From contig CANIQT010000013.1 in the NCBI GenBank assembly GCA_947469885.1, positions 13,604 through 77,603 of the forward strand: a stretch of DNA of 64,000 nucleotides, given 5' to 3'. The stretch's first letter is position 1. Every line of letters begins with the position of its first letter. Origin of the DNA: Bacteroidota bacterium (lineage in GTDB: Bacteria > Bacteroidota > Bacteroidia > 2-12-FULL-35-15). The notes under the pieces are model-generated. The model saw only the letters and a list, made by a program, of their open reading frames with translations, did no database searches and was not told the DNA's origin. Positions 15,407 to 58,596 of this stretch are shown piece after piece. The translations under genes and the position numbers were made by a program.

Positions 15407-15417
15407 TTAAAGATTTC

Positions 15418-16308
15418 TTAACTTCCAAATGGGGTGTACATAGTAATACCTCTTTCATTGTAATTTTTCATCATTACTTCAAGCATTTTGTTTGCGTCAA
15501 TCAGCATACTTTGTGCTTCACCAATGGAACCTTTTATTAAAAGACCTTCTTTTTCAAACATTGGTTTTAGTGCATCACAATTTCGTTTGGCTGAATATTC
15601 AGGATTATGCACTTTCGTTTTCATAATTGATTTATTTCCTTTTTCATCAATCATTTCAACTTCAAATATCTTGTTGTCATAAACGGGAAACTTAAAATCA
15701 ACAGCATCTTCCAAAGTATGTAAATTTGTACAGGCTCCATTTAGTGTTGTTCCCAGCATTAAAATTTTCCCATTCATCAAACAAAGTTTTCTGAAAGGAG
15801 AATATTCATTGTAAGGTGTTAATTGCCCAAAGTGAGAATTAGTGTAATATTCAGCTAATCTTCCTTTTGCGCAAACTGAATCCGTTGGGTGAAAACTTCT
15901 GAATACATCATTTAATTTTCTAAAATATTCAGTAATAATTCCCATTTGTGATGGAGTGTTCTTTCTATCAAAATAAGGATTTTGTTCAAGGTATGTTTTG
16001 TTTCTTCCACTAGCACTGAAAGTTGGAAACAGTAAAGTTCCATTCTCTCCAACACATTCAAACAAAGCATTTACAACTGTTTCAGCTCCACCATCCACAA
16101 ACCCAATTTTACTTAAACTACTATGAACTAAAACTGAATCATCTTTTTTTATTCCTATTTTATTAAAGTCATTTATTAGTTTTTGTTTTGAAATTCCTTT
16201 CTGAGCAAGTTGTTGGTCATGTAATTGTTTTCTTCTCTGATTTTTCTTCAGCCTTTTTCCCAATTCAAGCAGAAATTCGGGAGTGTATTTTAATATAAAC
16301 TGTTTCAT
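15418..16308 (-). CDS. AAC(3)-family N-acetyltransferase (aminoglycoside 3-N-acetyltransferase fold; probably a sugar N-acetyltransferase here)
   Basis: The VLVHSSLSKIGFVDGGAETVVNALFECVGENGTLLFPTFS block matches the AAC(3) family signature. Confidence 0.6.
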   Translation of the reverse strand: MKQFILKYTPEFLLELGKRLKKNQRRKQLHDQQLAQKGISKQKLINDFNKIGIKKDDSVLVHSSLSKIGFVDGGAETVVNALFECVGENGTLLFPTFSASGRNKTYLEQNPYFDRKNTPSQMGIITEYFRKLNDVFRSFHPTDSVCAKGRLAEYYTNSHFGQLTPYNEYSPFRKLCLMNGKILMLGTTLNGACTNLHTLEDAVDFKFPVYDNKIFEVEMIDEKGNKSIMKTKVHNPEYSAKRNCDALKPMFEKEGLLIKGSIGEAQSMLIDANKMLEVMMKNYNERGITMYTPFGS

Positions 16309-16325
16309 ATTTCTTATGGAGAAAT

Positions 16326-19863: not shown

Positions 19864-19937
19864 TGTTTTTTATTTATTTTTATTAATAAGATAATCAAAT
19901 TTATTTTTCGATTAGCCCTTGTACCTACTACTTTCAG

Positions 19938-20009
19938 TAGCCCGTAGGGGAATCGAACCCCTCTTTCCAGGATGAAAACCTGGCGTCCTAACCCCTAGAC
20001 GAACGGGCC
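19938..20009 (-). tRNA. tRNA-Glu (anticodon UUC)
   Basis: Reverse complement GGCCCGTTCGTCTAGGGGTTAGGACGCCAGGTTTTCATCCTGGAAAGAGGGGTTCGATTCCCCTACGGGCTA. It folds as a cloverleaf with a 7-bp acceptor stem (first pair G-U), D-stem GTCT/GGAC, anticodon stem CCAGG/CCTGG, loop TTTTCAT and T-arm AGGGG-TTCGATT-CCCCT. CCA is not encoded. Confidence 0.8.
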
Positions 20010-22400: not shown

Positions 22401-23942
22401 ATGAAAACCAGATTAATTGTTTCAGTTGTTGCGTTAATTGCATTGGCATCTTGCAATTCGCCTAAAAGTGCTACTAAGAGTACTTATGATGACGACATTT
22501 ATTATACTTCAAAAGACGCTGCTGCTGACAAAGAAAAGCAAAAGCTAGAAGCAGAAAATAAAAAACTGAGAGAAGAAAACGAACGAAAATCGGCTCAGTT
22601 GGACGAATATGCCCGTAATCAAAATAAGCCAGAACAACCTGCTTTGAGTCAGAAAAAAAGCACTTATGCCAATTCCAATGATGATGATTATTATAACCCA
22701 TCACAGAGCTCTACTTCATCTACCACAGATGAAAATGGTGCTGTTGTGAATAATACCACCAACAATTATTACGAAAAACCGTTTAATTATGATGATTATT
22801 ATGACGATGAATATGCGGTACGTTTAAGACGTTTCCATAATAGTTGTGGTACTTCTTATGGATATTACGATAACTATTACACCAATTCATATTGGTATAA
22901 TAATGACCCTTATTATTATGGTTCTTCTGTTTATATGGGTTACAATTTTTGGGGACCAAGTTATGCCACTTTTGCTTATTGCCCAAGCTACAACTATTAT
23001 TCTAACATGGGTTGGGGATACGACCCTTGGTATAACCCTTACGGATATTATGCTTACAATAATTACAACCCTTACGGTGGTTATTATGGTTGCAATCCTT
23101 ATGGTTATAACCCTTACGGTTACAATCCCTATGGCTATAACTCTTATGGATACAACCCTTACGGATATGACCCTTATGGTTATAACCCATATGCGTACAA
23201 CAATAATTATTTCAACAGTTACGACAACAATAGTTATTATTATGGTCCGCGAGGTGGAAACTCTGGTGCAGGAGGTACTGGTCGTACTACAACGCAACCA
23301 ACATTAGCAAGCCGTTATATTGCTGCTGTGGAAACTGAAACTCATAAACCTTTTGAAGAAACAAAAGGAAGAACTTCTAATCCTCATTTGCTACATACCA
23401 CTGTGGCTGATTATTCAACAAAACCAGCAAGTCATTCAACTAATTACGAAAAACCGAATGGTCCGGTTAATCCTAATCATAAAGTGGATGATTCGGAAAT
23501 TCGTGATAACAATAAACCTGCTGCCAATGAAGTTAAACCGAGAGAACATGCTGAGGACTATTATCAAGGAAAACCGATACGTGTGGAGCAACCAAATAAT
23601 AACAATACCATTCATAATGATCAGGCTAAACCGAGAAATGAGGCGCCTAGAAACGAGCAACCAAGATATGAAGCACCAAGAAATGAACAGGCGCAGCCAC
23701 GTAACGAACAACCAAGGAACAACCAGTCTCAACCTAGAAATGATGTGCCCAGAAATACGGAGCAGTCAAAACCAAGAACTGAGAAACCTCGCTTTGCACA
23801 GTCTTCGCCTGTTTTTTCAGAGCCAAGAAGCAATTCTCCTTCTCTATCTCCTGCAAGCGGAAGCAATAATGGTGGCAGTGTGAGAAGCAATTCTTCAAGT
23901 GGCACTCCATCCAATAGTTCGGGTGGTGGTAGAAGAAAATAA
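22401..23942 (+). CDS. lipoprotein with coiled-coil N-region, Tyr/Asn/Pro/Gly-rich NPYGY tandem repeats and C-terminal PRNE(Q/A)P repeats
   Basis: Lipoprotein signal MKTRLIVSVVALIALASC with a lipobox Cys. The NPYGYNPYGYNPYGYNSYGYNPYGYDPYGYNPYAYNN block lies near 23030-23210. The KPRNEAPRNEQPRYEAPRNEQAQPRNEQPRNNQSQPRND block lies near 23630-23800. Antisense and other-frame track ORFs in this span are artefacts of the repeats. Confidence 0.6.
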   Translation: MKTRLIVSVVALIALASCNSPKSATKSTYDDDIYYTSKDAAADKEKQKLEAENKKLREENERKSAQLDEYARNQNKPEQPALSQKKSTYANSNDDDYYNPSQSSTSSTTDENGAVVNNTTNNYYEKPFNYDDYYDDEYAVRLRRFHNSCGTSYGYYDNYYTNSYWYNNDPYYYGSSVYMGYNFWGPSYATFAYCPSYNYYSNMGWGYDPWYNPYGYYAYNNYNPYGGYYGCNPYGYNPYGYNPYGYNSYGYNPYGYDPYGYNPYAYNNNYFNSYDNNSYYYGPRGGNSGAGGTGRTTTQPTLASRYIAAVETETHKPFEETKGRTSNPHLLHTTVADYSTKPASHSTNYEKPNGPVNPNHKVDDSEIRDNNKPAANEVKPREHAEDYYQGKPIRVEQPNNNNTIHNDQAKPRNEAPRNEQPRYEAPRNEQAQPRNEQPRNNQSQPRNDVPRNTEQSKPRTEKPRFAQSSPVFSEPRSNSPSLSPASGSNNGGSVRSNSSSGTPSNSSGGGRRK

Positions 23943-34488: not shown

Positions 34489-34531
34489 TCCGATTTCAGA
34501 TTTCAAATTTCAGATTTGAATATTAAAAAAA

Positions 34532-34566
34532 CTCCCCCGATAAACATATCGGGGGAGTTTTTTTTG
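34532..34566 (+). terminator. rho-independent terminator
   Basis: ctcccccga-taaacata-tcgggggag followed by T8. Confidence 0.7.
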
Positions 34567-34641
34567 TGTAGCAAGACTTACTTAATTATTTTACATAGTT
34601 AACCTGCTAATAAATAAAATTCTATCTTTGAAAAAACTTAA

Positions 34642-36708
34642 ATGAAGAAACTCTTTCCCCTAGTTATTGTTATTAATCTTTTACTGTGTCCGGCTTTTGC
34701 TCAAAACAAAGTCATTGATTCTCTTCAAGCAGAATTAACAAAAACAACGGATGATACCACCCGCCTTAAAATATATTTGGCACTTGGCCAGGTATGCAAT
34801 GTAAAAGATAATTTGAAATATGCTCAACCTGCACTGAAGCTTGCAGATAAACTTATTGCTCATACATTTCAGAATAATAAGAAAAATGAATTTTTAAATC
34901 AGAAGGCGGAAGTTTGTATTTTCTTTTCCAATTACTATTTTTATATTAATGATACCGCCAAAATAGCAGAATGGCAGCAAAAACTTATATCTATTTATAA
35001 AGAAACAAAAGATACAAATAGTATTGTGGATACATATTTGGGGTACAGTAGTTATTTTAAGAGTATAGGCAACTTTCCAAAATCATTAGACTGGAGCAAA
35101 AAAGGATTATCCGTATCCACAGAAATGAATTACAAAAAAGGCATTTCAAGGGCGTTATGTTATATCGGAGATATCTATCGCGACCAGGGCGAAAAAGGTC
35201 AGGCACTTCAAAACTATACCAAGGCGTTAAACCTGTTGTACGAGCTTAACGACACCACTTTACTGGTGGATGCATTGTTGGCAACAGGAGGACTTTTCCG
35301 CACTCCTCAATATTATAATCGGGCCCTTGCTTTGTGCGAAGCAAAAAAAATGAATGATAAAGTAAGTTATATCTATCGATTTTTAGGGCAGATATATCGA
35401 GAACATAAAATTTACGATACTTCATTAATAAATTATCAAAAAAGTGCATCACTCTTTGAAGCGATGAAGAATAAAGAAATGGTGAAAGATATTTTGGATG
35501 ATATAGGGTTGGTGTATGAGGAAAAAGGAGATTTGGAAAAAGCACTTGACTATCATTTAAAGGCATTAAAATCAGCCAAAGAACTTAACTATGAATATGG
35601 AATTGCCTCGTCTTATCTTTGTTTGGCTCGTACATACAACAAACAAAAAAATTACAAGCTCGCTAAAGACTATAGCGACCGTGCGCTGAAAATGAAAAAC
35701 CAGTTTAATATTGAAACTAACCGCAATGCCGAACTAACTGCTTCACAAATAGATTCGGCAGGTGGAAATAAAAACGAAGCTTTTGAGCACTATAAGCAAT
35801 ACATCTTGCTTCGCGATAAAATGCAAAGTGAAGAAATACACAAAGCAGCAGCTCAAGAGAAATTTCAAAACGAATTTGATAAACAACAGACAATTGCTAA
35901 ATCGGAACAAGAAAAAATAAAAGCAGTGGCAAATGCAGAAAGTAAAAAGCAAAAACTTATACTTCTTTTTGTGGTGCTTGGTTTGATGTTGGTATTGGTG
36001 TTTGCAGGCTTTGTGTTTCGTTCGTTACAGATAAGAAATAAACAGAATAAAATTATCACTTCGCAAAAAGCAGAAGTAGAAAAAGAAAAACAAAGAAGTG
36101 ATGAACTATTGCTTAACATTTTGCCCGAAGAAGTAGCCGAAGAGTTGAAACAAAAAGGAAGCGCAGAAGCAAAACAGTTTGATAATGTTACTGTTCTGTT
36201 TACCGATTTTGTTGGCTTTACCTTGATAAGCGAAAAACTAACACCAAAAGAATTGGTTGCCGAAATACATTATTATTTTACCGAATTTGATAAAATAACA
36301 GAGCGGAACGGGTTGGAAAAAATTAAAACCGTTGGCGATGCTTACCTTGCCATTTGTGGTTTACCTAATGAAGATAAATATCATGCAAAAAAAACGGTTC
36401 AAGCAGCGCTGGAAATAATTGAGTTTATTAATAGGCGGGCAGCAGAAGGAGGAAAGTTTAATATTCGCATAGGTATTAATTCAGGCTCGGTGGTAGCAGG
36501 TATAGTTGGTGTTAAAAAGTTTGCGTATGATATTTGGGGAGATACGGTAAACACAGCTGCAAGAATGGAACAAAACAGCCAAAACGGTAAAATAAATATT
36601 TCAGAATCTACTTATCAGTTAGTAAAAAACGACTTTAAATGTGTACACAGGGGAAAAATAGAAGCAAAAAACAAAGGCGAAATTGATATGTATTTTGTGG
36701 AAAAATAA
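34642..36708 (+). CDS. TPR-repeat sensor adenylate/guanylate cyclase (class III), membrane-anchored
   Basis: Signal peptide, then multiple TPR-like repeats, a TM helix LILLFVVLGLMLVLVFAGFVF, and a cyclase domain with VLFTDFVGFT and KTVGDAY motifs. Confidence 0.8.
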   Translation: MKKLFPLVIVINLLLCPAFAQNKVIDSLQAELTKTTDDTTRLKIYLALGQVCNVKDNLKYAQPALKLADKLIAHTFQNNKKNEFLNQKAEVCIFFSNYYFYINDTAKIAEWQQKLISIYKETKDTNSIVDTYLGYSSYFKSIGNFPKSLDWSKKGLSVSTEMNYKKGISRALCYIGDIYRDQGEKGQALQNYTKALNLLYELNDTTLLVDALLATGGLFRTPQYYNRALALCEAKKMNDKVSYIYRFLGQIYREHKIYDTSLINYQKSASLFEAMKNKEMVKDILDDIGLVYEEKGDLEKALDYHLKALKSAKELNYEYGIASSYLCLARTYNKQKNYKLAKDYSDRALKMKNQFNIETNRNAELTASQIDSAGGNKNEAFEHYKQYILLRDKMQSEEIHKAAAQEKFQNEFDKQQTIAKSEQEKIKAVANAESKKQKLILLFVVLGLMLVLVFAGFVFRSLQIRNKQNKIITSQKAEVEKEKQRSDELLLNILPEEVAEELKQKGSAEAKQFDNVTVLFTDFVGFTLISEKLTPKELVAEIHYYFTEFDKITERNGLEKIKTVGDAYLAICGLPNEDKYHAKKTVQAALEIIEFINRRAAEGGKFNIRIGINSGSVVAGIVGVKKFAYDIWGDTVNTAARMEQNSQNGKINISESTYQLVKNDFKCVHRGKIEAKNKGEIDMYFVEK

Positions 36709-36835
36709 TACCCAAATAAAAAAAGCAATGTAGGCATTGCCAAGCCCCCCGCCCTGTTGACCATAGCCTCTGACTAAATTCGATTTAACAAGACTTCCAG
36801 TCTTTTTAGCCTTTGTTGGTGTTTTTCACCAACAA

Positions 36836-37053
36836 ACGTGTGAAGAAAAAAATCGGGATATTTAATTTCGTACGTTTGCAGGTGAAAAACACCTGCAAAG
36901 GCATCGTTTTCGTTAATAATTAAGAACACCAACAACGGCTAAAAACGTGTGAAGAAAAAAATCGGGATATTTAATTTCGTACGTTTGCAGGTGAAAAACA
37001 CCTGCAAAGGCATCGTTTTCGTTAATATTTAAGAACACCAACAATGGCTAAAA
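36836..37053. repeat. two tandem copies of a 109-bp unit (98 percent identical), each containing a 10-bp-stem hairpin TTTGCAGGTG-aaaaa-CACCTGCAAA; flanked upstream by an inverted partial copy (ttttagcctttgttggtgtt, 36816-36835)
   Basis: Direct comparison of 36836-36944 with 36945-37053 shows 2 mismatches. The inverted repeat between 36816-36835 and the unit ends aacaccaacaa(c/t)ggctaaaa is visible in sequence. Confidence 0.85.
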
Positions 37054-37405
37054 GGCTTTCAGTATTTTTATTTATATGGTTATCTACACCTTTCTTCAAA
37101 TTCATAAAACAAAGATAAGTATAATTGCTACAGAGCAAAAGTTAAAGGCACAAAAATAAATTAGGGCTTTAATAATTTATACTTCTGTTTGGCATACCTT
37201 CTGATGTAGGCTCAACTATATTTTCAAAATCCTTGTATCTTTTTTAACTTTTTGCGTTATTACTATAAAAACAAAAAATATTTACGGAAAAATGTAACCT
37301 TTTATTTTATCTTTCGTAAAACTAGATATAACCACAAAACAATAAGCGCATGAAACACCCCTACCAACAGTAAACATCAAAAAATCAGTGCGCTTAAAAT
37401 TTTTT

Positions 37406-37446
37406 AACCATTAACCATTATCACTTAACCATTATCCATTAATCAC
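37406..37446 (+). promoter_or_regulatory. cluster of reiterated AACCATTA(TC) motifs upstream of the sigma-factor gene (candidate operator/promoter element)
   Basis: The sequence aaccattaaccattatcacttaaccattatccattaatcac carries three or four copies of CCATTA within 40 bp, ending 16 bp before the TTG-initiated ORF. Confidence 0.25.
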
Positions 37447-37528
37447 GGCTATCGGTTCTTTCTTGTTTGCTGTCCATTCCGTCCACACGGGATTCGTAAA
37501 TTCGTATTTATTAGTTATCCGAACCAGA

Positions 37529-38119
37529 ATGACAAAAGAACAAAAAAGAGAGGCAGAGCAACTTAGAGATGCGCCCCTCATTCAGCAACACAGAGATGGC
37601 GATGCAAAAGCATTTGCCCAACTTGAAAAACTTTACAAAACTCCCCTTTATTGGTATAGCTATAAAAAGCTGGGCAATCGCCCGGATGCTGAAGATGCCG
37701 TGCAGGAAGTATTTATAAGAGCAGTGGAAGCTATCAACAATGGAAACTACAGGGAAGAAATGCATTTTGGCGGGTGGTTGCACACAACAGCCCGCAATTA
37801 TATAGAGCATATTCAGAAAAAGAAAAAGCCAACTATAAAAAATGTGGAAGAATTACCAGAGGTGATGATGGAAGAAACAGAAAGTAAAGAAGAAATTAAA
37901 GAAAAAAGAAAACGGGTACGCAGCCTGTTTAAAGGGTTATCGCTCAGTGAAGCTAAATTAATGTTGCTTCGTTACTGGCATAAACTAAAATGGAAAGAGA
38001 TTGCAAAACGACTTAAAATAACTGAAAAGTATGCATCAGGGCTACATTCAAAGATTATTAAGAAGTTTCAAAAAAAGGCGGGTGAAAATATTTTTTTGAA
38101 AAATGGTGGGATTTTTTGA
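37529..38119 (+). CDS. sigma-70 family (ECF-type) RNA polymerase sigma factor
   Basis: Region-2-like DAVQEVFIRAVEAINNG...GWLHTTARNYI and a region-4 HTH KWKEIAKRLKITEKYASGLHSKIIKKFQKK. The track ORF begins at a TTG (37463). The ATG at 37529 (MTKEQK) is the likelier start. Confidence 0.65.
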   Translation: MTKEQKREAEQLRDAPLIQQHRDGDAKAFAQLEKLYKTPLYWYSYKKLGNRPDAEDAVQEVFIRAVEAINNGNYREEMHFGGWLHTTARNYIEHIQKKKKPTIKNVEELPEVMMEETESKEEIKEKRKRVRSLFKGLSLSEAKLMLLRYWHKLKWKEIAKRLKITEKYASGLHSKIIKKFQKKAGENIFLKNGGIF

Positions 38120-38194
38120 GTTTTGTGTATTGTATATATAAAGGGTGTTATCGTTCTTTAAATAGTAAAATTGATTTCAAGTGAAATCTGTCGC

Positions 38195-38278
38195 GTTTCC
38201 GAAGGAATGCGACACGTTTCCGAAGGAATGCGACACGTTTTCGAAGGAATGAAACAAGTTTCCTTGGAAACAGAACAA
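38195..38278 (+). repeat. four tandem 21-bp iteron-like direct repeats (GTTTCCGAAGGAATGCGACAC x2 perfect, x2 degenerate)
   Basis: 38195-38215 and 38216-38236 are identical. 38237-38257 has 3 mismatches. 38258-38278 is degenerate and contains the palindrome gtttcc-tt-ggaaac. Confidence 0.85.
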
Positions 38279-38334
38279 ATTTTAGTAGAAACAAAATAGT
38301 AAATAAAATTATAATCAATTAAAACAAGAAAAAG

Positions 38335-38442
38335 ATGAACAGCGTATTATTTCAAAGTTTCGGGATTTTTAGTCTTTTATCCTTGCTGCAGTTATACAGC
38401 GTAAAGAAGCAAAAAAAAAGGAGGTGTAAAATGTCATGGTAA
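38335..38442 (+). CDS. possible 35-aa upstream ORF (MNSVLFQSFGIFSLLSLLQLYSVKKQKKRRCKMSW) overlapping the start of the downstream gene (ATGGTAA)
   Basis: It is in frame from the ATG at 38335 to the TAA at 38440-38442. A strong Shine-Dalgarno-like AAAGGAGGTG lies at 38417-38426, which is unusual for Bacteroidota. Confidence 0.25.
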   Translation: MNSVLFQSFGIFSLLSLLQLYSVKKQKKRRCKMSW

Positions 38443-39038
38443 TCGTAAAAAATGGTTTAAAGGGAAAAAATCCTTCACAACGGGCAACATACTGTTTGAG
38501 AGTGAAAACAAAAACCACGGGAAATGCGTTTTTTCCTGATGCGGGTCCGTTTTTGGCACCGCTGGGAGATGCAGCAGCAGCAGTGAACACTGCATTGCAA
38601 AACCCGTTGGGGACAGCCGCCACAGTGAGAGAAAAAAATGGCGTGCTTAGGGTAAAGATGAACAAGTTTGTTGCTCACGTGCAGGGTGTGATAGATGAGG
38701 TGTCGGACGACCTGGCTTTGGAAATGCTTTCTACAATTGATTTGGAAGCAAAGATAGAGACACCAGTGCATATTCCTGATTTGTCGGCTAAGCAAGGTAG
38801 AGAAGCAAATTCAATAGCGGTGCGAAGAATTGCTGAAAGAAAACGGGTGACATACAGATTTCAAATCTGTACCGACCCGTCTTTGGAAGAGAACTGGAAA
38901 GATGCTAAAACATCGAGCAGGGCTAAAGTCGTGATTCGGGAATTAATTTCAGGTACCAAGTATTATTTGCGTGTTGCAATTATACGGGGCGATGTTCAGG
39001 AAGATTGGTCAGATTACATTTCTATCATTGTTGATTAA
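38436..39038 (+). CDS. hypothetical protein with C-terminal Fn3-like fold (200 aa), GC-richer than surroundings
   Basis: Intact ORF. The C-terminal SGTKYYLRVAIIRGDVQEDWSDYISIIV is beta-sandwich-like. The antisense track ORF 38475..38795 is rejected. Confidence 0.5.
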   Translation: MVIVKNGLKGKNPSQRATYCLRVKTKTTGNAFFPDAGPFLAPLGDAAAAVNTALQNPLGTAATVREKNGVLRVKMNKFVAHVQGVIDEVSDDLALEMLSTIDLEAKIETPVHIPDLSAKQGREANSIAVRRIAERKRVTYRFQICTDPSLEENWKDAKTSSRAKVVIRELISGTKYYLRVAIIRGDVQEDWSDYISIIVD

Positions 39039-39062
39039 GAAATGTGTGTGGTCTAGATTGAA

Positions 39063-39146
39063 AAAACTCACTGAGTGATGTAAATGGATAAAAGTTGGTT
39101 ACACAGTAACCTTCTCCGCAAGCATCAAAGCAGTGAGTTTTTTATT
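39063..39146. terminator. long bidirectional-terminator-like structure: 11-bp outer stem aaaactcactg/cagtgagtttt enclosing an inner hairpin ggttac-acag-gtaacc, followed by a T-run
   Basis: The inverted repeats are read directly. The structure lies between convergent genes (38436..39038 plus strand, 39170..39595 minus strand). Confidence 0.45.
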
Positions 39147-39169
39147 TTAATACTTTCGAAATAAAAAAA

Positions 39170-39595
39170 TTAATTATAAATATGCAACGTGGTTCCGTCA
39201 AAGGTGGTGTTGTAGGTTTTAAGCGGCACAGAGGCAGGTCCGTTGGTTACGGTGCCATCATAAAGCGAAAATTTGGAATGACAACACGTGTCGGTAGCTA
39301 ATATATGAGTAGCATCCACCACCACTGTGGCGCAGGGTTGAGAAGGCTGGTAGGTACAGTTGCGCTCGTAAGCTATAATTTCGGAAGTAGTTTTGCGGTA
39401 CAATAATATTCCTCTCACTCCTCCTGTTATATAAGTATATCCTCCAATGGCATTCAAATCAATAAAACTAGGGCTGCTGGTGTATATATAAATATCTACA
39501 CTGGCTAAGGGCACATTGTTGTCTTGTTGTTTTTTGCAATTGAATGCAAACACAATAACCGAAACAAGAAGTAGTAGTTTAAAAACCGATTTCAT
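39170..39595 (-). CDS. small lipoprotein, hypothetical (Cys-rich)
   Basis: Signal peptide MKSVFKLLLLVSVIVFAFNC with a lipobox Cys. The 141-aa product has six further Cys (CTYQPSQPC, DTCCHSKF). Confidence 0.5.
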   Translation of the reverse strand: MKSVFKLLLLVSVIVFAFNCKKQQDNNVPLASVDIYIYTSSPSFIDLNAIGGYTYITGGVRGILLYRKTTSEIIAYERNCTYQPSQPCATVVVDATHILATDTCCHSKFSLYDGTVTNGPASVPLKTYNTTFDGTTLHIYN

Positions 39596-39784
39596 TTATT
39601 GGAAAATTATAAGCAACAAAATTAAGCAAATTTATTTAACCTGATAAATAAACGGTGTGGGCATTATATTATTACTTTTGTTGCTCATTAATAGATTGAT
39701 TCTACCATATTTCATGTGAAATAGAAAAAAATTAAACACATAGGTACATAACTCAACTTGCTAGTGGTGAAACTGTTTAAAAGT

Positions 39785-39921
39785 CAATAGCCACGACCTT
39801 TAGGTCGTGGTAACATTTGATTATAAAAATTGGCTTTAGCCAAAAAATTGTTGTTTTTGTTGGGCTGAAGCCCAATTACATCTTTAATTATTTTCCCCCG
39901 ACCTAAAGGTCGGGGCTATTG
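39785..39921. mobile_element. 137-bp MITE-like element: 26-bp imperfect terminal inverted repeats (24/26), each arm itself a perfect 8-bp-stem hairpin, enclosing two further hairpins
   Basis: The left arm is caatagccacgacctttaggtcgtgg (39785-39810). The right arm is ccccgacctaaaggtcggggctattg (39896-39921). The internal hairpins are ttggct-tt-agccaa (39830-39843) and ttgggct-ga-agcccaa (39860-39875). Confidence 0.4.
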
Positions 39922-39982
39922 TTAGTAGTCCAATACAAGTGCTTTTTCAACTATCAACTTGAGTTACTAGAAGAAAGAAACC

Positions 39983-40315
39983 TTGCAGAACTTATATATG
40001 TATAGAAAAATATTCAGAAAATTAATTTTACTCCTTCTTTGTTTGTTACCATTCACCATGGTGGATGCACAAGAAAAGAAACAGGAAAGCAAAGGAGCTA
40101 TATCAGCAAAAGTGCAACGGAGAGCAGCAAGGCAAAAATGGAAAGACCAGCGCAAAACAGAAAGAGCTCAGAAAAAGGCTGTAGCAGCACATCACAAGCG
40201 ACTTCAAACAAAAAAAACATTGAAAAGCATGAAGCAGCAGAAAAAAAAGAGCGACCGACTGAGAGATAATAAGCGAGAACCCTTTTTTGTCAGATGGTTT
40301 AAATTTAAGCATTGA
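39983..40315 (+). CDS. small secreted highly basic Lys/Arg/Gln-rich protein
   Basis: The likely start is the internal MYRKIFRKLILLLLCLLPFTMVDAQ signal peptide. The mature part is KKQESKGAISAKVQRRAARQKWKDQRKTERAQKK... Confidence 0.4.
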   Translation: MQNLYMYRKIFRKLILLLLCLLPFTMVDAQEKKQESKGAISAKVQRRAARQKWKDQRKTERAQKKAVAAHHKRLQTKKTLKSMKQQKKKSDRLRDNKREPFFVRWFKFKH

Positions 40316-40699
40316 CGGGCATTACAGTCAATATTTTAGGTATTTAAAAAACTTTTTTAAAAAATAAATGAAAAAAAGTTTGGTGAATCAAAATTAATGT
40401 CGTAATATTGCAACATAATTTAATTAGACAGCATCCCCAAACGTTTAAATTAAGTACTCAGACAGTTTCTGTGTCTGCGTTTAATAATTTCCAAAATCAC
40501 GTATTGTTAATTAATTCTTAATAATTATTTAAAAAATTAATTATTATTAATTGAACTGAATTTTAGCACATTAAAATTCGAAAATAGTTTTATAAAAAGA
40601 ATTAAAAAAAAATATTTGTTAATGAAAATTAAAAAATCATATATTTACGCGCTTTTAAATTTTGCACGAGTTTAAATAATAAAAATAATACAATATAAT

Positions 40700-44515: not shown

Positions 44516-47500
44516 ATGAAAAAGAAAAATTTTAACGTAATCGTTTTGTCAATTTTCTTGGCATTTGCATTCGGTGCATTTGCAAAAGAAAACATTGGAG
44601 GTGGAAGTCATCCAACAAACCCTCCGGGTAACAATTCAGCCAAGTCGGTAAATGCTCAATGCGTAAATGCTACAGCACAAATAGATTTGGACATCAACAA
44701 TGTAAGAGCCAAAATTATGAATGGAGGCGACATGTGGTGGGATATTTTTGCTTCCACGAACGCTAGGTATCAGGTACCTAAACCTGCAAGTAGTTCTACC
44801 ATCGGACCAAGCTCACAGTTCGCAAGTTCTGTGTGGGTTGGAGGTTACGATGCTGGTGGTCAGCTAAAAGTAGCTGCTCAAACGTATCGCCAGAGCGGAA
44901 ACGACTATTGGCCCGGACCATTGAAAGATGATGCAACTACCGATGCAGGCAGATGTTTGCTTTGGGATAGATTCTACAAATTGAACCGTAAAGATGTTCA
45001 GGCTTATTACGAATGGGTAATGGGTGGTTCTATTGGAGTAAATCCTATCATTTCGGGAGCATCATTGCCTGATGCTTGGGCTACTATCACAGATTGGCCT
45101 GCTGTAAGTCCTGATAACCATCCTTTAGCTCCTTTTTATGATATTGATGCCAATAATGAATACGACCCAAGTGTGGGTGATGTTCCTGATTTTGATGTTA
45201 CTGGTACAAGAGGTTGCAATGCTCAGCTATATGGCGACCAGTGTATTTTTTGGGTGTTTAATGATAAAGGAAATATACACACCGAAACAGGAGGTGAAGC
45301 CATAGGATTGGAAGTACAGGCACAGGCATTTGCTTTTCAGACCAACGATGAAATTAACAATGCTACCTTTTACAAATATAAATTAATTAACAAAGGTTCG
45401 TTTGTATTAGATAGTACGTTCTTCGGATTGTGGGATGATGCCGATTTGGGAGATTATTCTGACGATTATGTAGGTTGTGATGTTGGTCTTGGGTTGGGTA
45501 TTCTTTATAATGGAGATGCGGTGGACGGTACCGGTGGTGCTACGCACTATGGAGCTAACCCTCCTGCAGTGGGTGTTGACTTTTTTGAAGGACCAAAGGC
45601 TGATACGAATGGTTTAGATGATCTTTCTAGTTCAAGACCGGCTTCATTCATTAATTATGGAAACACTGTGGTTGATGATGAGCGTTTAGGGATGTGTCGT
45701 TTCATGTATTTTAATAATGACTTTACTCCCGTTAACGGAAACCCGGAAGCAACAGATGATTATTACCAATACTTATCAGGAACATGGAAAAATGCAACTC
45801 CAATAACTTATGGTGGAGATGGTACAACAGGAAGTGTGCCATGTGCGTATATGTTCCCTGGAAGTTCGGATGCTCCTGCCTTTTTTGGAACAAATGGAGT
45901 AATTCAGCCAGCATGGAGCGAAACAGCAGTGCCTGCTGATAGACGTTTCCTTGAAAGTGCTGGTCCTTTTAAATTATATCCTGGTGCTGTCAACTACATT
46001 ACCGTTGGTGTTCCTTGGGCAAGAGCCACTCAAGGAGGTCCTTTGGCTTCTGTAGCACTTTTGAAAGGTGCTGACTCTAAAGTTCAGCAATTGTTCAACA
46101 ACTGTTTCTCTACGTTAAATGGTCCTGATGCTCCTAACTTAACGATTCAGGAATTGGATAAAGAATTAATATTAACCTGGTCCAATCCTTCTAATTCAAA
46201 CAACGCAAACGAAAGATATACTGAAGATTACGATAAATCCTCTGGGGCAGATTCGTTGTACCGCTTTCAAGGGTACATGGTGTATCAGTTAAAAGATGCT
46301 TCGGTGAGTGCCACCGATTTATACAATGTGGACAAGGCACGTTTAATTTTCCAGTGCGATAAAAAAGACAATGATAAACCAAATGGTGCAGCTCAGATAG
46401 TGAACTATACCAATGATATTACTATTTCAGCATTGGTTCCACAAGAAATGGTGAACGGTGTTGATAAGGGTATCATACATTCTTTGTCTGTAAAATCAGA
46501 TAAATTTGCAACTGGTAGCGATGTGTTGATTAATCACCACACCTATTATTTTGCAATTATTGCTTATGGTTACACACCAACTCAAGTGCCTACTAATCTT
46601 AACCAATTGCAAGACTACAAACCATTTATTGCAGGAAGAAGATTTATGGATGCTACTTTTTATCATACTGCTATTCCTCATATCCCTTCGCCAGAAGCAA
46701 ATGGAACACAGGCACAATCATCGTATGGTACAGGTCCAAAATTAACAAGAATAGAAGGACAGGGTAATGGTGCAATGGTGTTGGATTTAACTTCAGGTAC
46801 TGTGGACGAAATAATGAATTCAGGTTCTGGATGGCGCTCTATTCATCCTCAATATGAAAACTCTCACGGTCCAGTAAACATGAAAGTGATTGACCCATTG
46901 AATGTACCAGCCAACAGAAATTTCAGATTCATTATGAACGGAAGGGTTGTTACTAATTTATCTTCCATACCTACAACTGCTACATGGGATTTGATTGATA
47001 TGGATAATCACGATACTGTTCATTCCGAAACAAGTATTGCTTTGCCAAATGAGCAAATTATCAATGGGCAATCATCTGGTTCTGCTGCGGTTTCTATTCC
47101 TCGATGGGGGCTATCTGTTAATTCAGTTTATACGTATGATCCAGGATTAGCAGGTTGTGTTGATAATGGCTATTTGGAAGCTACAATGACTTTTGCTGAC
47201 CCTGTTAAAGCATGGTTGACGGGAGTGCCCGATGCGGAAGGATTGGATTATCATAACTGGATTCGTTCAGGAACTTTTACTTCTAAAAATCCGTTAGGAT
47301 TTGACGATTATGCAGGAAAAGACGATCAACAGTTTTACGAAAAAATGATTGGCGGCACATGGTCTCCTTATCGTATGGCTTCTATGGTGGTTCCAACCAC
47401 TGCAACAAACCCAGTAATTATGACGGGTAGTCCGGCATGGAACAGTTCTTCTGCCATGGGTCAGGATTTATTATCCAACCTTGCAAGTGTGGATGTAATT

Positions 47501-48592
47501 ATTACCAGCGACCGCTCTAAATGGACTAGATGTCCGGTTATTGAGTTGGAAGAAGCTACTAACTTGGCAATAGGCAATACTCCAAAAATGAAAATGCGTA
47601 GTTCTGCTTCAGTTGATAAAAATGGTACTGCCAACTTCCCTTCGACAGACAATAGCGATTACTCTACAGGTATGAGTTGGTTCCCTGGGTATGCAATTAA
47701 TCTTGAATCAGGAGAGCGTTTGAACATGGCTTTTGGAGAAGATTCTTGGTTGGTAGCTGACCATGGTGCAGATATGATGTGGAATCCAACTACAACGGAC
47801 CTTTCGGCAACAGACAATACTCCAGTTTTTGGAGGGAAACACTATATATATGTGTTCGGGCATAATGGTAACAAATTGTTCCCATCAAACGACCCGCATT
47901 TCCCAAATCAAATAAAAAACATGCCTCGTTACGATGGTGGTGCTTTCACTCATAATATGTTGTCGGTGGCTACCATGTCAGATGCATCTAACCTTTATGC
48001 ACGTGCGGTTTATGGCGATGCTATGTGGGTAAATATTCCTTTACTTGTACCTGGGCACAGTTTATTTGAAACTGATGTAAAAGTACGTTTGAGAGTTGCT
48101 AAATCGTACCAGTTTGGTTATGCAGGTTTAATTGCCCCTTTAACTGATACCTCGTTAACTGCTACCAATCACAATTTACCGATGTACGATTTTAATACAG
48201 CAGATATTGGAACCAAAACAAGTGATGCAGATGCTGCGGCTAATGCGCTTGACTTGATTAATGTAGTTCCAAATCCGTATTATGCGTACTCCGGATACGA
48301 ACTTTCGACAGCTGAAGTGAAAGTAAAAATAACCAATCTACCAGAAAAATGTACTGTAACTATTTATACTTTAAATGGCACATTGGTGAGAGCATTTAAA
48401 GTGGATCAGCCTGGTTATGCAAGAGACAAAATGGGGGTAGCGGTTACCTCTATTGACTGGGATTTGAAAAACCAAGTTAGAATTCCAATTTCGAGCGGAC
48501 TTTATATTATACATATAGATGTTCCTGATGTTGGAGAGAAAAACATTAAATGGTTTGGTGTGATGCGTCCGATAGATTTAGAAGCTTATTAA
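44516..48592 (+). CDS. large secreted protein (1358 aa) with T9SS type-A CTD; positional candidate for PorU-like T9SS sortase
   Basis: Signal peptide MKKKNFNVIVLSIFLAFAFGAFA. The C-terminal VVPNPYYAYSGYELSTAEVKVKITNLPEKCTVTIYTLNGTLVRAF...GLYIIHIDV is a CTD. It lies immediately upstream of a PorV-like gene, the porU-porV order. The C25 catalytic dyad is not verified. Confidence 0.5.
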   Translation: MKKKNFNVIVLSIFLAFAFGAFAKENIGGGSHPTNPPGNNSAKSVNAQCVNATAQIDLDINNVRAKIMNGGDMWWDIFASTNARYQVPKPASSSTIGPSSQFASSVWVGGYDAGGQLKVAAQTYRQSGNDYWPGPLKDDATTDAGRCLLWDRFYKLNRKDVQAYYEWVMGGSIGVNPIISGASLPDAWATITDWPAVSPDNHPLAPFYDIDANNEYDPSVGDVPDFDVTGTRGCNAQLYGDQCIFWVFNDKGNIHTETGGEAIGLEVQAQAFAFQTNDEINNATFYKYKLINKGSFVLDSTFFGLWDDADLGDYSDDYVGCDVGLGLGILYNGDAVDGTGGATHYGANPPAVGVDFFEGPKADTNGLDDLSSSRPASFINYGNTVVDDERLGMCRFMYFNNDFTPVNGNPEATDDYYQYLSGTWKNATPITYGGDGTTGSVPCAYMFPGSSDAPAFFGTNGVIQPAWSETAVPADRRFLESAGPFKLYPGAVNYITVGVPWARATQGGPLASVALLKGADSKVQQLFNNCFSTLNGPDAPNLTIQELDKELILTWSNPSNSNNANERYTEDYDKSSGADSLYRFQGYMVYQLKDASVSATDLYNVDKARLIFQCDKKDNDKPNGAAQIVNYTNDITISALVPQEMVNGVDKGIIHSLSVKSDKFATGSDVLINHHTYYFAIIAYGYTPTQVPTNLNQLQDYKPFIAGRRFMDATFYHTAIPHIPSPEANGTQAQSSYGTGPKLTRIEGQGNGAMVLDLTSGTVDEIMNSGSGWRSIHPQYENSHGPVNMKVIDPLNVPANRNFRFIMNGRVVTNLSSIPTTATWDLIDMDNHDTVHSETSIALPNEQIINGQSSGSAAVSIPRWGLSVNSVYTYDPGLAGCVDNGYLEATMTFADPVKAWLTGVPDAEGLDYHNWIRSGTFTSKNPLGFDDYAGKDDQQFYEKMIGGTWSPYRMASMVVPTTATNPVIMTGSPAWNSSSAMGQDLLSNLASVDVIITSDRSKWTRCPVIELEEATNLAIGNTPKMKMRSSASVDKNGTANFPSTDNSDYSTGMSWFPGYAINLESGERLNMAFGEDSWLVADHGADMMWNPTTTDLSATDNTPVFGGKHYIYVFGHNGNKLFPSNDPHFPNQIKNMPRYDGGAFTHNMLSVATMSDASNLYARAVYGDAMWVNIPLLVPGHSLFETDVKVRLRVAKSYQFGYAGLIAPLTDTSLTATNHNLPMYDFNTADIGTKTSDADAAANALDLINVVPNPYYAYSGYELSTAEVKVKITNLPEKCTVTIYTLNGTLVRAFKVDQPGYARDKMGVAVTSIDWDLKNQVRIPISSGLYIIHIDVPDVGEKNIKWFGVMRPIDLEAY

Positions 48593-55692: not shown

Positions 55693-56673
55693 ATGAAAAA
55701 AATATTAAATCTTATATTTTGTGTTTTGTGTTTCGTGAATAATCTCAAGTCGCAAAATCTTGTACCTAACGAATCATTTGAAGTTTTGGACAGTTGCCCA
55801 AACAATCAGGGAAGAATATATCTTGCTCTGCCGTGGTTTCAACCTTGCATATATTCAGGTAATACCCATAACTCTTCAAGCTCCGATATTTACAATCCAT
55901 GTGCTTTATGGGCTCCAGCTGGAGTTCCGGTCAATATGGTTGGTTCCCAATTTGCCAGAATTGGTGTTGGATATGCAGGTATTCACCCAGATGTTGACAC
56001 TTTTAATTACCGCGAATACATTGAAGTCCCATTATTATCGCCATTAATTGCCAATAAACTGTATTGTGTAAAGTTTTATGTTTCCTTGGCTGAAACGTCA
56101 CATCATGCCATAAGTAATATGGGGGCATATTTTTCAAATGATAGCTTATTGGATACTTCGTATTATCATGCCATAGATTATGTTTTTCCGCAAATAGAAA
56201 ATCCTGGAAATGTTTTTTTAAATGATACTGCAAATTGGGTGTTGGTTTGGGGTAATTTTATTGCTACTGGTGGAGAGCGGTTTATGACAATAGGAAATTT
56301 TCATAATCATGCAAATACAAATGTTCAAAATTTGAACGGAGGTTCTCTAGGCAACTGGTCGTATTATTACATAGATGATGTAAGTGTTATAGATTGCGAT
56401 AGTATAAGTGGGGTAAAAGAAATGAATGATGAAATGGAAGTGAGCATTGCGCCCAACCCGGCAAAGGATGAATTACGAATTAAGAATTATGAATTAGGAA
56501 TTAAAACAATAAAAATATATAACCTGCTAAGTGAATGTGTCTATAACACAACAATAAAACAATTAAACACTATAACCATTGATGTTGCCTATTTACCCAA
56601 AGGCATCTATTTTATTGAACTGCAAAGTGAGAAAGGAACTGCGAGAAAGAAGTTTATAAAGGACGGCAAATAG
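55693..56673 (+). CDS. secreted CBM4_9-like domain protein with T9SS type-A CTD (paralog A)
   Basis: Signal peptide MKKILNLIFCVLCFVNNLKSQ, an NLVPNESFE jelly-roll start, and the C-terminal SIAPNPAKDELRIKN...KGIYFIELQ CTD. Confidence 0.65.
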   Translation: MKKILNLIFCVLCFVNNLKSQNLVPNESFEVLDSCPNNQGRIYLALPWFQPCIYSGNTHNSSSSDIYNPCALWAPAGVPVNMVGSQFARIGVGYAGIHPDVDTFNYREYIEVPLLSPLIANKLYCVKFYVSLAETSHHAISNMGAYFSNDSLLDTSYYHAIDYVFPQIENPGNVFLNDTANWVLVWGNFIATGGERFMTIGNFHNHANTNVQNLNGGSLGNWSYYYIDDVSVIDCDSISGVKEMNDEMEVSIAPNPAKDELRIKNYELGIKTIKIYNLLSECVYNTTIKQLNTITIDVAYLPKGIYFIELQSEKGTARKKFIKDGK

Positions 56674-57446: not shown

Positions 57447-58415
57447 ATGAATAAAGCATTCTTTCTTTTCGTAATATTGAACTTGACTCAGAATCTTTCA
57501 ATGAATGGACAAAACCTTGTACCTAATTCCTCTTTTGAAGTAATTGATTCTTGCCCTACTATAGATGGAAAGCTATATTTTGCGCAACCATGGTTTCAGC
57601 CCTGCATTTATTATGGGAACACGAAAAACTCTTCTAGTTCCGACATCTTCAGTTATTGTGCGTCATACATGGGTGTTCCTACTAATGGAGAAGGTTCTCA
57701 ATTTGCAAGGACAGGTAACGGATATGCAGGTTTTAGTCCTTACGCTGGTATTAATAATGGTCGCGAATATAACGAAGTTCAACTATTATCACCGTTAATA
57801 GCCAATAAACTCTATTGTGTAAAATTTTATGTTTCATTAGCTGAAACCTCACGATACGCAATTAGCAAATTAGGTGTGTATTTTTCCGTAGATAGTTTAT
57901 TAGATACTTCCTATTATCATGCAATAGATTATGTTTTTCCGCAAGTAGAAAACCCTAGTAATATTTTTTTAAATGATACATCTAATTGGATGTTGGTATG
58001 GGGAAATTTTGTTGCAACTGGTGGAGAGCGGTTTATGACAATTGGTAATTTTCATAATCCCGCAAATACAAATGTTCAAAACGTAAACGGAGGTTCTTTT
58101 TATTGGACATATTATTATATAGATGATGTAAGTGTAGTAGATTGTGATAGTATAAGTGGGGTAGGGGAAATTAATGGAGAGGTGGATGTGAGCATTGCGC
58201 CTAATCCTGCAACGGATGAATTACGAATTAAGAATTATGAATTAGGAATTAAAACAATAAAAATATATAACCTGCTAAGTGAATGTGTCTATAACACAAC
58301 AATAAAACAATTAAACACTATAACCATTGATATTGCCTATTTACCCAAAGGCATCTATTTTATTGAAGTACAAAGTGAGAAAGGAATAAAGAGGAGAAAG
58401 TTTGTGAAAGAATAA
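57447..58415 (+). CDS. secreted CBM4_9-like domain protein with T9SS type-A CTD (paralog B)
   Basis: The 322-aa product is collinear with paralog A at about 75 percent aa identity. Its CTD coding part is nearly nucleotide-identical to that of paralog A. Confidence 0.65.
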   Translation: MNKAFFLFVILNLTQNLSMNGQNLVPNSSFEVIDSCPTIDGKLYFAQPWFQPCIYYGNTKNSSSSDIFSYCASYMGVPTNGEGSQFARTGNGYAGFSPYAGINNGREYNEVQLLSPLIANKLYCVKFYVSLAETSRYAISKLGVYFSVDSLLDTSYYHAIDYVFPQVENPSNIFLNDTSNWMLVWGNFVATGGERFMTIGNFHNPANTNVQNVNGGSFYWTYYYIDDVSVVDCDSISGVGEINGEVDVSIAPNPATDELRIKNYELGIKTIKIYNLLSECVYNTTIKQLNTITIDIAYLPKGIYFIEVQSEKGIKRRKFVKE

Positions 58416-58596
58416 AAACACGATTAACCCACCAACATCCTCCTCGTCATAAATTTCTTATTTCTTCGATTTGCGATATAAAAATTTTTACTACTTTGGT
58501 GCAACCATTTTAATGTTCTAAGCATCCTTATAGATGGGTGGTGGAATTGGAACAATTTATTGTTAACCATTTTAGTTAATTTAAATCTACTTTTAG

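Follow-up and report, generated by a model that had tools for sequence, protein, structure and literature searches.

What has gathered so many repeats, hairpins and small genes into the few kilobases that separate an adenylate/guanylate cyclase gene from a TonB-dependent receptor-like gene in a freshwater Bacteroidota chromosome? The stretch lies at 36.7 to 40.3 kb of the window, by which we mean the whole 64,000 nucleotides (nt) that were analysed (contig CANIQT010000013.1, positions 13,604 to 77,603 of the forward strand). The source is an AT-rich (36.6% GC) Bacteroidota population of freshwater lakes, and identical contigs are found in several lake metagenome assemblies and in the metagenome-assembled genome GCA_947472355.1. 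An initial annotation had listed nine features in the stretch, all of which are present at or near the places where it had put them, and had offered two readings, an acquired island in minimal or decayed form, or a regulatory hotspot. We propose that the stretch is a variable junction between conserved chromosomal backbone and strain-variable inserts, and not a single island. Central to it is an expression cassette built around one open reading frame (ORF), ORF200. For this explanation as a whole, comprising the junction with its two inserts, the cassette and the mechanism inferred for it, we estimate a probability of about 0.5.

Two inserts in a conserved gene order

The strains, relatives and homologous loci that were compared with the window are labelled by L-numbers (L003, L011, L048 and so on). 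The ancestral order was derived from two homologues of ORF141, a Rieske-like lipoprotein gene of the stretch, which lie on the long contigs L048 and L050 (the latter of 1.86 Mb). Both relatives carry, in the same order, genes for a WG-repeat protein, SAHH, ORF141 (convergent), a small basic protein, a TonB-like receptor, a 1358-amino-acid (aa) protein and a 369-aa protein. The proteins shared with the window have, in L048 and L050 respectively, amino acid identities of 95% and 92% for SAHH, 81% and 65% for the TonB-like receptor, 86% and 69% for ORF141, and 70% and 54% for the basic protein, which holds the same position. The spacers differ. SAHH and ORF141 are separated by about 70-80 bp with a single shared bidirectional terminator hairpin in L048 and L050 versus 4.7 kb in the window, and the spacer between ORF141 and the basic protein gene measures about 50-80 bp in the relatives versus 405 bp in the window. 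The cyclase, sigma factor and ORF200 genes were not found in L048 or L050 (tblastn for the cyclase, blastn for the whole insert), and the extra DNA of both window junctions has no match there. From the gene order and the short spacers of the two relatives, the window is therefore read as a conserved gene row that holds two inserts.

About 34566-39150 (about 4.6 kb): insert A, with the cyclase, the 109-bp repeats, the extracytoplasmic function (ECF) sigma factor gene, the 21-bp array, ORF200 and the long hairpin; absent from L048 and L050
About 0.3 kb in the spacer between ORF141 and the basic protein gene: insert B, containing the 137-bp inverted repeat
34525..34565, unstranded: terminator hairpin after SAHH, the left edge of insert A relative to L048 and L050
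34642-36708, plus strand: gene for a TPR and adenylate/guanylate cyclase protein (Pfam Guanylate_cyc, 7e-57), part of insert A
39170-39595, minus strand: ORF141, Rieske-like lipoprotein
40001-40315, plus strand: small, very basic protein with an N-terminal hydrophobic segment, signal-peptide-like by eye

Judged by this synteny, ORF141 and the basic protein gene belong to the ancestral backbone and are not cargo, although the initial annotation had counted both among the contents of the islet. It had also taken the cyclase as the left flank, a position that does not hold, as the cyclase is itself cargo of insert A and is absent at that position in the relatives. What stands of its acquired island, and of the synteny comparison it had suggested, is that there is inserted DNA between conserved genes; the borders, however, are not those it had drawn.

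Closer relatives add a further level of variation. Strains that are 95-100% identical to the window carry other flanks, on the left in L003, L004 and L011 (breaks near 37170, 37205 and 37273) and on the right of a break near 39975 in L013. Since the left borders differ from strain to strain, there are no fixed element ends, and a discrete mobile block with fixed ends was rejected on this ground. The gene on the left flank of L003 and L011 is no more than paralogous (about 40-44% identity) to two window genes, at 55.7 and 57.4 kb. If the mechanism proposed below holds, apparent islets in streamlined freshwater genomes can be mosaics, in which ancestral genes are combined with small self-contained cassettes at terminator-rich gene junctions.

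The ORF200 cassette

Much of the non-coding structure of insert A falls around ORF200, in the following order.

37234-37258 and 37293-37318, plus strand: two ECF-type promoter motifs, TGTATC-N15-GCGTT and TGTAACC-N16-CGTA, from a regular-expression scan
37404-37446, plus strand: TTAACCA/CCATTA microsatellite in the sigma leader
37450-37462, plus strand: conserved box, copy 1, TATCG(G)TTCTTT, upstream of the sigma gene, from alignment
37529-38119, plus strand: ECF sigma factor gene (Pfam Sigma70_r2, 5e-12; matches to r4, r4_2 and Sigma70_ECF; TIGR02937, 89 bits against a cut-off of 42.9)
38149-38162, plus strand: conserved box, copy 2, TATCGTTCTTTAAA, between the sigma gene and the array
38192-38275, plus strand: 21-bp tandem array, a variable-number tandem repeat (VNTR) with unit CGTTTCCGAAGGAATGCGACA, in 3.3 good copies (38194-38263, 89% matches) plus decayed copies
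38353-38441, plus strand: structured 5' leader, with helices GGGAU/AUCCU and GCUG/CAGC inside a GUUUC:GGAGG pairing, ending at the start codon (RNAalifold)
38417-38426, plus strand: extended Shine-Dalgarno (SD) sequence AAAGGAGGTG, a 10-nt match to the 16S 3' end
38436-39038, plus strand: ORF200, with an N-terminal helical bundle and a C-terminal FN3 domain (AlphaFold2, mean predicted local distance difference test score 81)
39061-39143, unstranded: long branched hairpin with A/T runs on both sides (-31.5 kcal/mol, z -5.9)

In the window, the cassette thus runs from the promoter motif TGTAAC-N16-CGTA through the sigma gene, the box, the 21-bp array, a leader of about 90 nt and the 10-nt SD to ORF200 and its terminator. 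The same anatomy is common to every homologue for which DNA is available, namely a promoter motif, the box CGTTCWTTRAA, an array of period 21, a leader of about 90-130 nt that ends in AAAGGAGGT, the ORF, and a hairpin with a T-run. The architecture of the cassette is well supported. Without the sigma gene, the cassette recurs in at least seven other chromosomal neighbourhoods, which share no neighbouring protein with the window; the neighbours of the homologues include an arylsulfotransferase, TPR proteins, giant secreted proteins, polyphosphate kinase, NADH dehydrogenase subunits and DprA. The suggestion of a regulatory hotspot came near the truth, in that a single transcription unit of promoter motif, sigma gene, array, leader and terminator takes in much of the non-coding structure.

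The individual parts are conserved to different degrees. The general promoter motif of the cassette is AAATGTA(A/T)C-N15-16-CGT(A/T), found about 650-700 bp upstream in the cassettes of ORF200 homologues; in sigma-less loci it stands 200-250 bp before the array, and in the window before the sigma gene. Its two blocks are kept while the spacer has diverged in L011, L020, L021, L024, L025 and L026. The box precedes the array in the aligned lineages of the ORF200 clade and, by eye, in L023, L027, L047 and a further cassette in L048. The microsatellite of the sigma leader aligns to GATTACACATTAAC of the sigma-less loci, and no independent role was found for it. Downstream, the branched hairpin at 39061-39143 is predicted to be a bidirectional terminator for the convergent ORF200 and ORF141, and an equivalent long hairpin with a T-run follows all seven of the ORF200-clade genes examined.

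The sigma gene occupies a peculiar place, being bracketed by two copies of the box in the window where the sigma-less loci have one copy. From this arrangement it looks as if the gene had entered the ORF200 leader at the box, or had been lost from it there. No terminator-like hairpin was found after the sigma gene. From its position between the promoter motif and the array and this lack of a hairpin, the sigma gene and ORF200 are therefore read as one unit with a putative autoregulated ECF promoter, on the strength of motifs; the routine sigma-70-type promoter and terminator scan is unsuited to Bacteroidota and to long-loop hairpins.

Promoters of the Bacillus sigW/sigX type have the form TGAAAC/TGTAAC-N16-17-CGTA. 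Autoregulated ECF sigma operons resemble the arrangement seen here in having a sigma factor of two domains (the present protein, of 196 aa, has regions 2 and 4 only, as in group 4), an AAC/CGT motif upstream of the sigma gene itself, and a downstream gene that is apparently co-transcribed, here by prediction. They differ in three respects. No anti-sigma gene was found adjacent to this sigma gene, although such a neighbour is expected of the ECF type; 316 bp with a tandem array and a structured leader come before the downstream gene; and most relatives here have the promoter motif and the target gene without the sigma gene.

A different motif, TGCAAC(C)-N16-GCATC, was noticed during the promoter scan at 40409-40435 (plus strand, upstream of the TonB-like operon) and at 58500-58526, that is twice in the window against 0.12 occurrences expected. 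It is also found at L019:1426, L020:4199, L021:4371, L023:7091, L025:4941 (minus strand) and L026:3596 (minus strand). The genes that follow it, at a distance of 70-300 bp, encode large secreted or outer-membrane proteins, and L048 and L050 have a related sequence at the corresponding place. A further alternative sigma factor may use this motif as its promoter.

The ORF200 protein itself has no signal peptide, and its structural matches are to generic helical-bundle and FN3 folds only. Neither Pfam, NCBIfam, PHROG nor PADLOC gave a match. Its close family comprises 12 clusters among 5.8 billion proteins, and by a profile search it falls within a broader superfamily, made up of uncharacterised proteins about 200 aa long. 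Distant genes (about 25% identity) lie in high-GC soil contigs, L043-L046 (the ORF200-like gene at L043:4001-4624) and L040:3552-4001. These adjoin ECF sigma and Ser/Thr kinase genes, and a long upstream region is conserved by eye between L040 and L043, without a tandem array or an SD.

A cassette that travels with its own promoter motif, leader and terminator between unrelated genes of different genomes recalls the morons of phages. Unlike morons, ORF200 is not found in prophages, and no homologue was found in IMG/VR, INPHARED or PLSDB (tblastn on plasmids and phages). A phage, plasmid or defence origin of the cassette was rejected on these grounds together with the lack of PHROG and PADLOC matches, which extends to ORF141 and the basic protein.

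The structured leader and its Shine-Dalgarno sequence

The leader folds into a three-way junction, in which GGGGY/RCCCU and GCUG/CAGC helices are enclosed by a GYUUC:GGAGG pairing that takes in the SD. In the alignment, 95% of the cells of 14 pairs are paired and 6 pairs have changed on both sides; none of 500 shuffles reached this pairing score, and pairing in slid controls is 43-51%. Seven sequences were used to build a covariance model, which matches leaders of the ORF200 clade only (72-97 bits), apart from one chance-level match in the window. The latter, at 13486-13565 on the minus strand (25 bits, E 0.012), falls at a gene junction and is probably due to chance, since there is no SD there. 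For 38264-38441, no Rfam match was obtained either at gathering or at E<=5. Conserved structure, compensatory changes and a constant position upstream of one gene family are the marks of a cis-regulatory RNA leader, and all three are found.

The sequence AAAGGAGGTG is the sole SD match longer than 4 nt among the 41 genes of the window, the other 40 having 4 nt or fewer, and it has been kept across the ORF200 clade as well as in L027 and L028. The initial annotation had assigned it to an upstream ORF. The SD is real, but it serves ORF200 (ATG at 38436). The supposed upstream ORF (38336-38441) and a three-codon ATG at 38431 overlie the conserved RNA structure, and the start codon is missing in L023 and L025, so that a coding upstream ORF is not supported.

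Bacteroidia ribosomes sequester the anti-SD and ignore SD sequences, and only rpsU has an obvious SD in F. johnsoniae (PMC7797042, PMC9976891, PMC13000453). The extended SD of rpsU in Flavobacteriales (PMC9976891, PMC13000453) and that of ORF200 are alike as long perfect matches in a phylum that hides its anti-SD, each being the sole one in its neighbourhood; they differ in that the present gene is not that of bS21 and that its SD is predicted to pair with an upstream strand of the leader. In this last point the leader is like SD-masking riboregulators, such as RNA thermometers and translational riboswitches, which share the conserved multi-helix leader, the (here predicted) pairing of the outer helix with the SD and the compensatory inner helices. 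It differs from them in having no Rfam family and no known ligand or signal, and in belonging to an SD-independent phylum.

The 21-bp tandem arrays

An array of period 21, or of a 42- or 63-bp super-period, precedes ORF200 in every lineage with usable upstream DNA, and arrays also precede the genes of two paralogue lineages that are 35% identical to ORF200 (L027/L028/L034 and L047). They are absent upstream in the 28%-identical relative L029 and in the high-GC soil relatives. Across 201 kb of window and loci, every non-coding tandem array of at least 3 copies and at least 60 bp is one of these 21-bp arrays.

The number of copies ranges from 3.3 in the window, the shortest array, to 18. As in VNTRs, it varies among close strains in these short-read assemblies, with 3.3 copies in the window versus 9.3 in L011, L012 and L030 (flanks 97% identical), and, in other near-identical pairs, 8.8 versus 5.8 (98.1% identical flanks) and 18.1 versus 17.1 (100%). 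Contigs of several independent assemblies start or end inside the 109-bp pair (window 36864) or inside 21-bp arrays (L019, L007, L039). As these repeats break short-read assemblies, array copy numbers need caution.

The sequence of the unit is not kept. Consensus units of different lineages agree at 8-13 of 21 positions, which is the level of chance, with the exception of the window and L023 (16 of 21). Co-evolution of the array with ORF200 is unlikely, because the units of L020, L021 and L024 are unrelated (9-13 of 21) despite well-conserved leaders and ORF200 proteins that are closely similar by eye. From this turnover of the unit with retention of the 21-bp period, it is therefore the presence, position and period of the array that are conserved, and not its sequence. 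The pattern fits the concerted evolution of an old minisatellite that may be kept for a sequence-independent reason, and poorly fits a site co-evolving with ORF200. No motif common to all arrays was significant; the hexamer TGYRAC occurs in five of nine arrays, and the null reaches five in 10% of permutations. No literature specific to comparable 21-bp arrays was found.

These repeats had been called iteron-like. The spacing stands, as they are phased direct repeats within the 17-22 bp range (period 21, 3.3 to 18 copies), and they share with plasmid and phage iterons a length of about 20 bp, two-helical-turn spacing, a position next to a gene and a replicon-specific sequence. In contrast to iterons, they have no Rep gene beside them and no plasmid or phage replicon around them, the flanks being core chromosomal genes, and the repeat does not track the adjacent protein (L020/L021/L024).

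A further array, of 10.2 copies of the 21-bp unit GGAGAAAGTTCTCCGTAAGTT, lies at L048:15561-15775, at the other edge of the same conserved gene block. It stands between a gene for a LuxR/GerE-type helix-turn-helix (HTH) protein and a gene for a 232-aa protein (genes at 14784-15482 and 15917-16435, minus strand). Boxes resembling GTTCTTTAAA come before the array, and a terminator follows the 232-aa gene. By eye, the 232-aa protein has a helical N-terminus and an FN3-like C-terminus (with a ...WSD..S..V ending); homology with ORF200 was not demonstrable (hhalign probability 0.2%). This cassette is absent from the window. The arrangement hints at a wider class of array-bearing cassettes.

Proposed mechanism

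Under the mechanism that we propose, the sigma factor would transcribe its own gene from the ECF-type promoter and, with no terminator behind the gene, would read on through the array and the leader into ORF200. The array, as a hypermutable stretch of the 5' leader with variable length, would adjust ORF200 output from strain to strain, in the manner of a contingency-locus rheostat, and helix 1 of the leader would mask the SD and thereby gate translation. We hold the combination of sigma read-through, repeat-number rheostat and translational gating to be possible, with the odds against all three acting together. The array may act in DNA or in RNA.

Contingency loci and VNTRs that lie between a promoter and a start codon are exemplified by the 7-bp repeats upstream of hmw1A and hmw2A in Haemophilus influenzae. 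Like these and other VNTRs, the present array is non-coding, lies upstream of a gene and differs in copy number between near-identical strains. It differs from them in its unit of 21 bp instead of 1-9 bp, in being retained down to 35% protein identity while the sequence of the unit turns over completely, and in preceding a gene whose product has no signal peptide or known surface role. Phase-variable tandem repeats of the MIRU type are described for M. tuberculosis (PMC12817950).

A number of points weigh against the explanation as a whole. Insertion, as opposed to deletion, is deduced from two relatives only (L048 and L050), and the differing flanks of L003, L004, L011 and L013 may be real rearrangements or chimeric contigs. 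The sigma gene adjoins ORF200 only in the window lineage, and the promoter is a motif call, the loose motif occurring at chance density in the window (3 versus 2.8 expected). The copy numbers were taken from short-read assemblies, in which tandem repeats can be collapsed, and contigs often break in the arrays. The folding of the arrays has no asymmetry between sense and antisense strands and their purine bias is weak, which ties them little to the RNA level. Helix 1, which holds the SD pairing, is nearly invariant and hence beyond a covariation test, while the alignment behind the covariation was fitted to the model and has few independent lineages. Finally, the SD may be unusable in this phylum, making its masking possibly irrelevant.

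A stronger version of the proposal would describe the ORF200 cassette as a hitherto undescribed relocatable expression module of freshwater Bacteroidota, in which an ECF-type promoter, a long-kept 21-bp minisatellite of fluid sequence whose length would set the level of expression, and a new leader RNA that would mask a perfect 10-nt SD are combined. We consider this description doubtful but worth stating for its consequences. If true, the mRNAs of the ORF200 family would be the second natural client, after rpsU, of ribosomes with an exposed anti-SD (free of bS21). Should the mechanism hold, a minisatellite would have been kept for long before one gene family while its sequence turned over, providing a natural system for a sequence-independent role of an array and for asking whether bacteria use long-unit VNTRs as rheostats. 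It would also supply a second conserved SD-led gene class in Bacteroidota, of which rpsU is the only clear case so far, with a bearing on the role of the retained anti-SD. Should the mechanism fail, the region would be an ordinary variable intergenic patch.

Alternative readings of the arrays

Two other accounts of the arrays have to be weighed, both of them unlikely in our estimate. In the first, the arrays are neutral minisatellites with a single origin in the ancestral leader, maintained since then by slippage and concerted evolution, so that only the leader and the promoter matter. The free drift of the unit within an inherited period is what concerted evolution predicts, and decayed arrays (L025, L026, L033), the mere 3.3 units of the window, and the lack of a shared motif and of strand-specific folding all agree with neutrality. 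Bacterial genomes tend to delete useless DNA, however, and the arrays persist across 35%-identical paralogues and in every lineage of two AT-rich clades. Their GC content, 37-49% versus 24-40% in the adjacent leaders, and the occurrence of a similar array and box before a different helical/FN3-like gene in L048 also speak against mere persistence.

In the second account, the arrays are operator- or iteron-like DNA sites that a sequence-specific protein would bind every two helical turns, as a roadblock, decoy or activator platform. The protein could be an HTH regulator encoded upstream (the ECF sigma factor here, the LuxR/GerE-type protein in L048), ORF200 or a host factor. The period is exactly 21 bp in all lineages, and most units appear by eye to have a short dyad-symmetric core, such as TTCCGAAGGAA, TGTGACACA, GCAACTTGC, GGAGAAAGTTCTCC and TTCATGAA. 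Only two arrays have a gene immediately before them, both times one for an HTH protein of the sigma-region-4 or LuxR type, and the LuxR/GerE-type gene of L048 keeps the idea of an HTH protein bound to the array alive. Against a specific binder stand the unrelated units of L020, L021 and L024 beside ORF200 proteins that look alike, the absence of a DNA-binding fold in ORF200, the non-significance of TGYRAC as a -35-like hexamer, the lack of an adjacent regulator gene in most loci, and the lack of a Rep gene or of any plasmid or phage context.

The palindromic repeat elements

Two further elements, one in each insert, add to the repeat density of the stretch.

36803-37053, plus strand: 109-bp palindromic repeat element, made of a left inverted end (36803-36826, 23-24 nt) and then two tandem copies, each of core and right end
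39785-39921, unstranded: 137-bp inverted-repeat element, with 32-nt arms that are 88% complementary (-59.9 kcal/mol, z -8.5)

The tandem pair of the 109-bp element (36834-37053) has 2.0 copies with 98% matches, where none is expected by chance. Its 23-24-nt ends are 91-92% complementary, and the window holds one and a half units. The element was found in three lineages. In L011 there is one copy, whose central hairpin carries an insertion of 34 nt in its loop, and a diverged copy adjoins the ORF200 paralogue in L027, L028 and L034, just after the terminator of the paralogue in L027 and L028; in the viral scan its matches were chance seeds only. The 137-bp element is present at this site in all strains, but its hairpins are broken in L011 by a deletion of 3 bp and in L013 by a G>A change. 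Searches of the window, the loci and the relatives gave no second copy, nor did a scan of IMG/VR for the pattern of its arms.

Both elements have the anatomy of MITEs (miniature inverted-repeat transposable elements), being short, non-coding and bounded by terminal inverted repeats. With MITEs and REP-/Correia-type repeats they share a length of 110-140 bp, stable hairpins, an intergenic position and absence at the site in relatives. They differ from these in their numbers, with one 137-bp copy and very few 109-bp copies in the sequence compared, and in having no known partner transposase and no target-site duplication, none having been clearly recognised at the element ends. The 137-bp element is MITE-like in anatomy and may be a MITE, with one copy in the window, the loci and the relatives. 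The 109-bp element is read as a small dispersed repeat in decay.

That the two elements are small-RNA genes or regulatory RNA structures, instead of remnants of mobile repeats, we consider quite improbable. The palindromes of the stretch fold far better than shuffles (z -5.9 to -8.5), the 109-bp unit at -50 kcal/mol with z -6.4; both elements are intergenic and upstream of genes, and the 109-bp core is conserved across species (window, L011, L027/L028). Against an RNA function, a selected structured RNA is unlikely for the 109-bp element because its hairpin is not maintained across copies (the insertion in L011 and a mismatch in L027), the hairpins of the 137-bp element are broken in two strains, both strands fold about equally well, and Rfam gave no match at gathering and only chance-level microRNA or leader matches at E<=5.

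Composition and the single-island reading

ORF200 and ORF141 had been noted as GC-richer than their surroundings, and the measurements bear this out. Their GC contents are 43.4% and 40.4% (window genes, mean 35.6 +/- 3.4%), and their GC contents at third codon positions (GC3), 39.3% and 39.4%, are the highest in the window (mean 28.5 +/- 4.6%). The z values are about 2.3-2.4 for ORF200 GC, ORF200 GC3 and ORF141 GC3, and 1.4 for overall ORF141 GC. Since ORF200, at 40-44% GC, exceeds the background of its locus in eight of nine loci examined, this is largely a trait of the gene family and does not point to recent import. The stretch has ordinary tetranucleotide usage (z -0.8 to +0.5), so the compositional scan that the initial annotation had recommended marks no island.

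It is very improbable that the whole of 36.7-40.3 kb is one decayed mobile island that has lost its integrase. Such an island would agree with the insertion of DNA relative to L048 and L050, with the maximum of GC3 in ORF200 and ORF141, and with the flank differences among strains. Of the usual marks of a genomic island, however, only insertion relative to relatives was found, with neither an integrase or transposase, nor tRNA or direct-repeat borders, nor deviant composition. The absence of an integrase or transposase, which had been remarked on before, was confirmed among the ORFs of the stretch (ORF list, Pfam, NCBIfam and PHROG/PADLOC scans), and there is no tRNA within about 14 kb, the nearest, at 19937-20009, being about 14.6 kb from the insert. 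Moreover, ORF141 and the basic protein gene are ancestral and syntenic, the insert begins upstream of the cyclase and so contradicts the proposed left border, and the strain-specific left borders near 37170, 37205 and 37273 leave the supposed island without defined ends.

That the 21-bp repeats encode heptad-repeat peptides (21 nt being 7 codons) is barely credible, for although gene callers put ORFs of 42-87 aa on several arrays and some arrays are open in at least one frame, coding was rejected because each of the six frames has stops in L025, L026 and L033, because called ORFs lie on different strands between loci, and because the homologous units of the window and L023 are open in different frames.

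Backbone genes and other observations

ORF141 belongs to a large and well-kept Bacteroidota family, with 112 homologue clusters, nearly all at 53-86% identity, several of which are named 'Rieske (2Fe-2S) protein' by their sources; its matches in the PDB are weak and confined to Rieske ferredoxins. By eye, the protein starts with a lipoprotein-like signal (…AFNC) and keeps the second Rieske box (C-C-H...), with C-T-Y at the place expected of the first Cys-x-His box. The protein may lack a canonical 2Fe-2S cluster.

The 1358-aa protein downstream of the TonB-like gene (44516-48592) has no Pfam match. Its last 100 residues or so weakly match the C-terminus of PorZ of the type IX secretion system (E 3.5e-5, falling far short of the cut-off), which hints at a C-terminal domain for type IX secretion.

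Elsewhere in the window, a tandem repeat of 10.2 copies of 249 bp (68% matches) at 60637-63177 is apparently coding, its open frame running off the window end, and this region is the sole strong tetranucleotide outlier of the window (z about 4). Two paralogous genes, apparently for secreted proteins, lie at 55693-56673 and 57447-58415. They share identical downstream microsatellites, (GAATTAA)5 and 2.5 copies of AACAATAA (56470-56569 and 58218-58317), and these identical microsatellites, 1748 bp apart, point to a recent tandem duplication. A coding tandem repeat of 15/30/45 bp is found at 23084-23201, within the ORF at 22401-23942.

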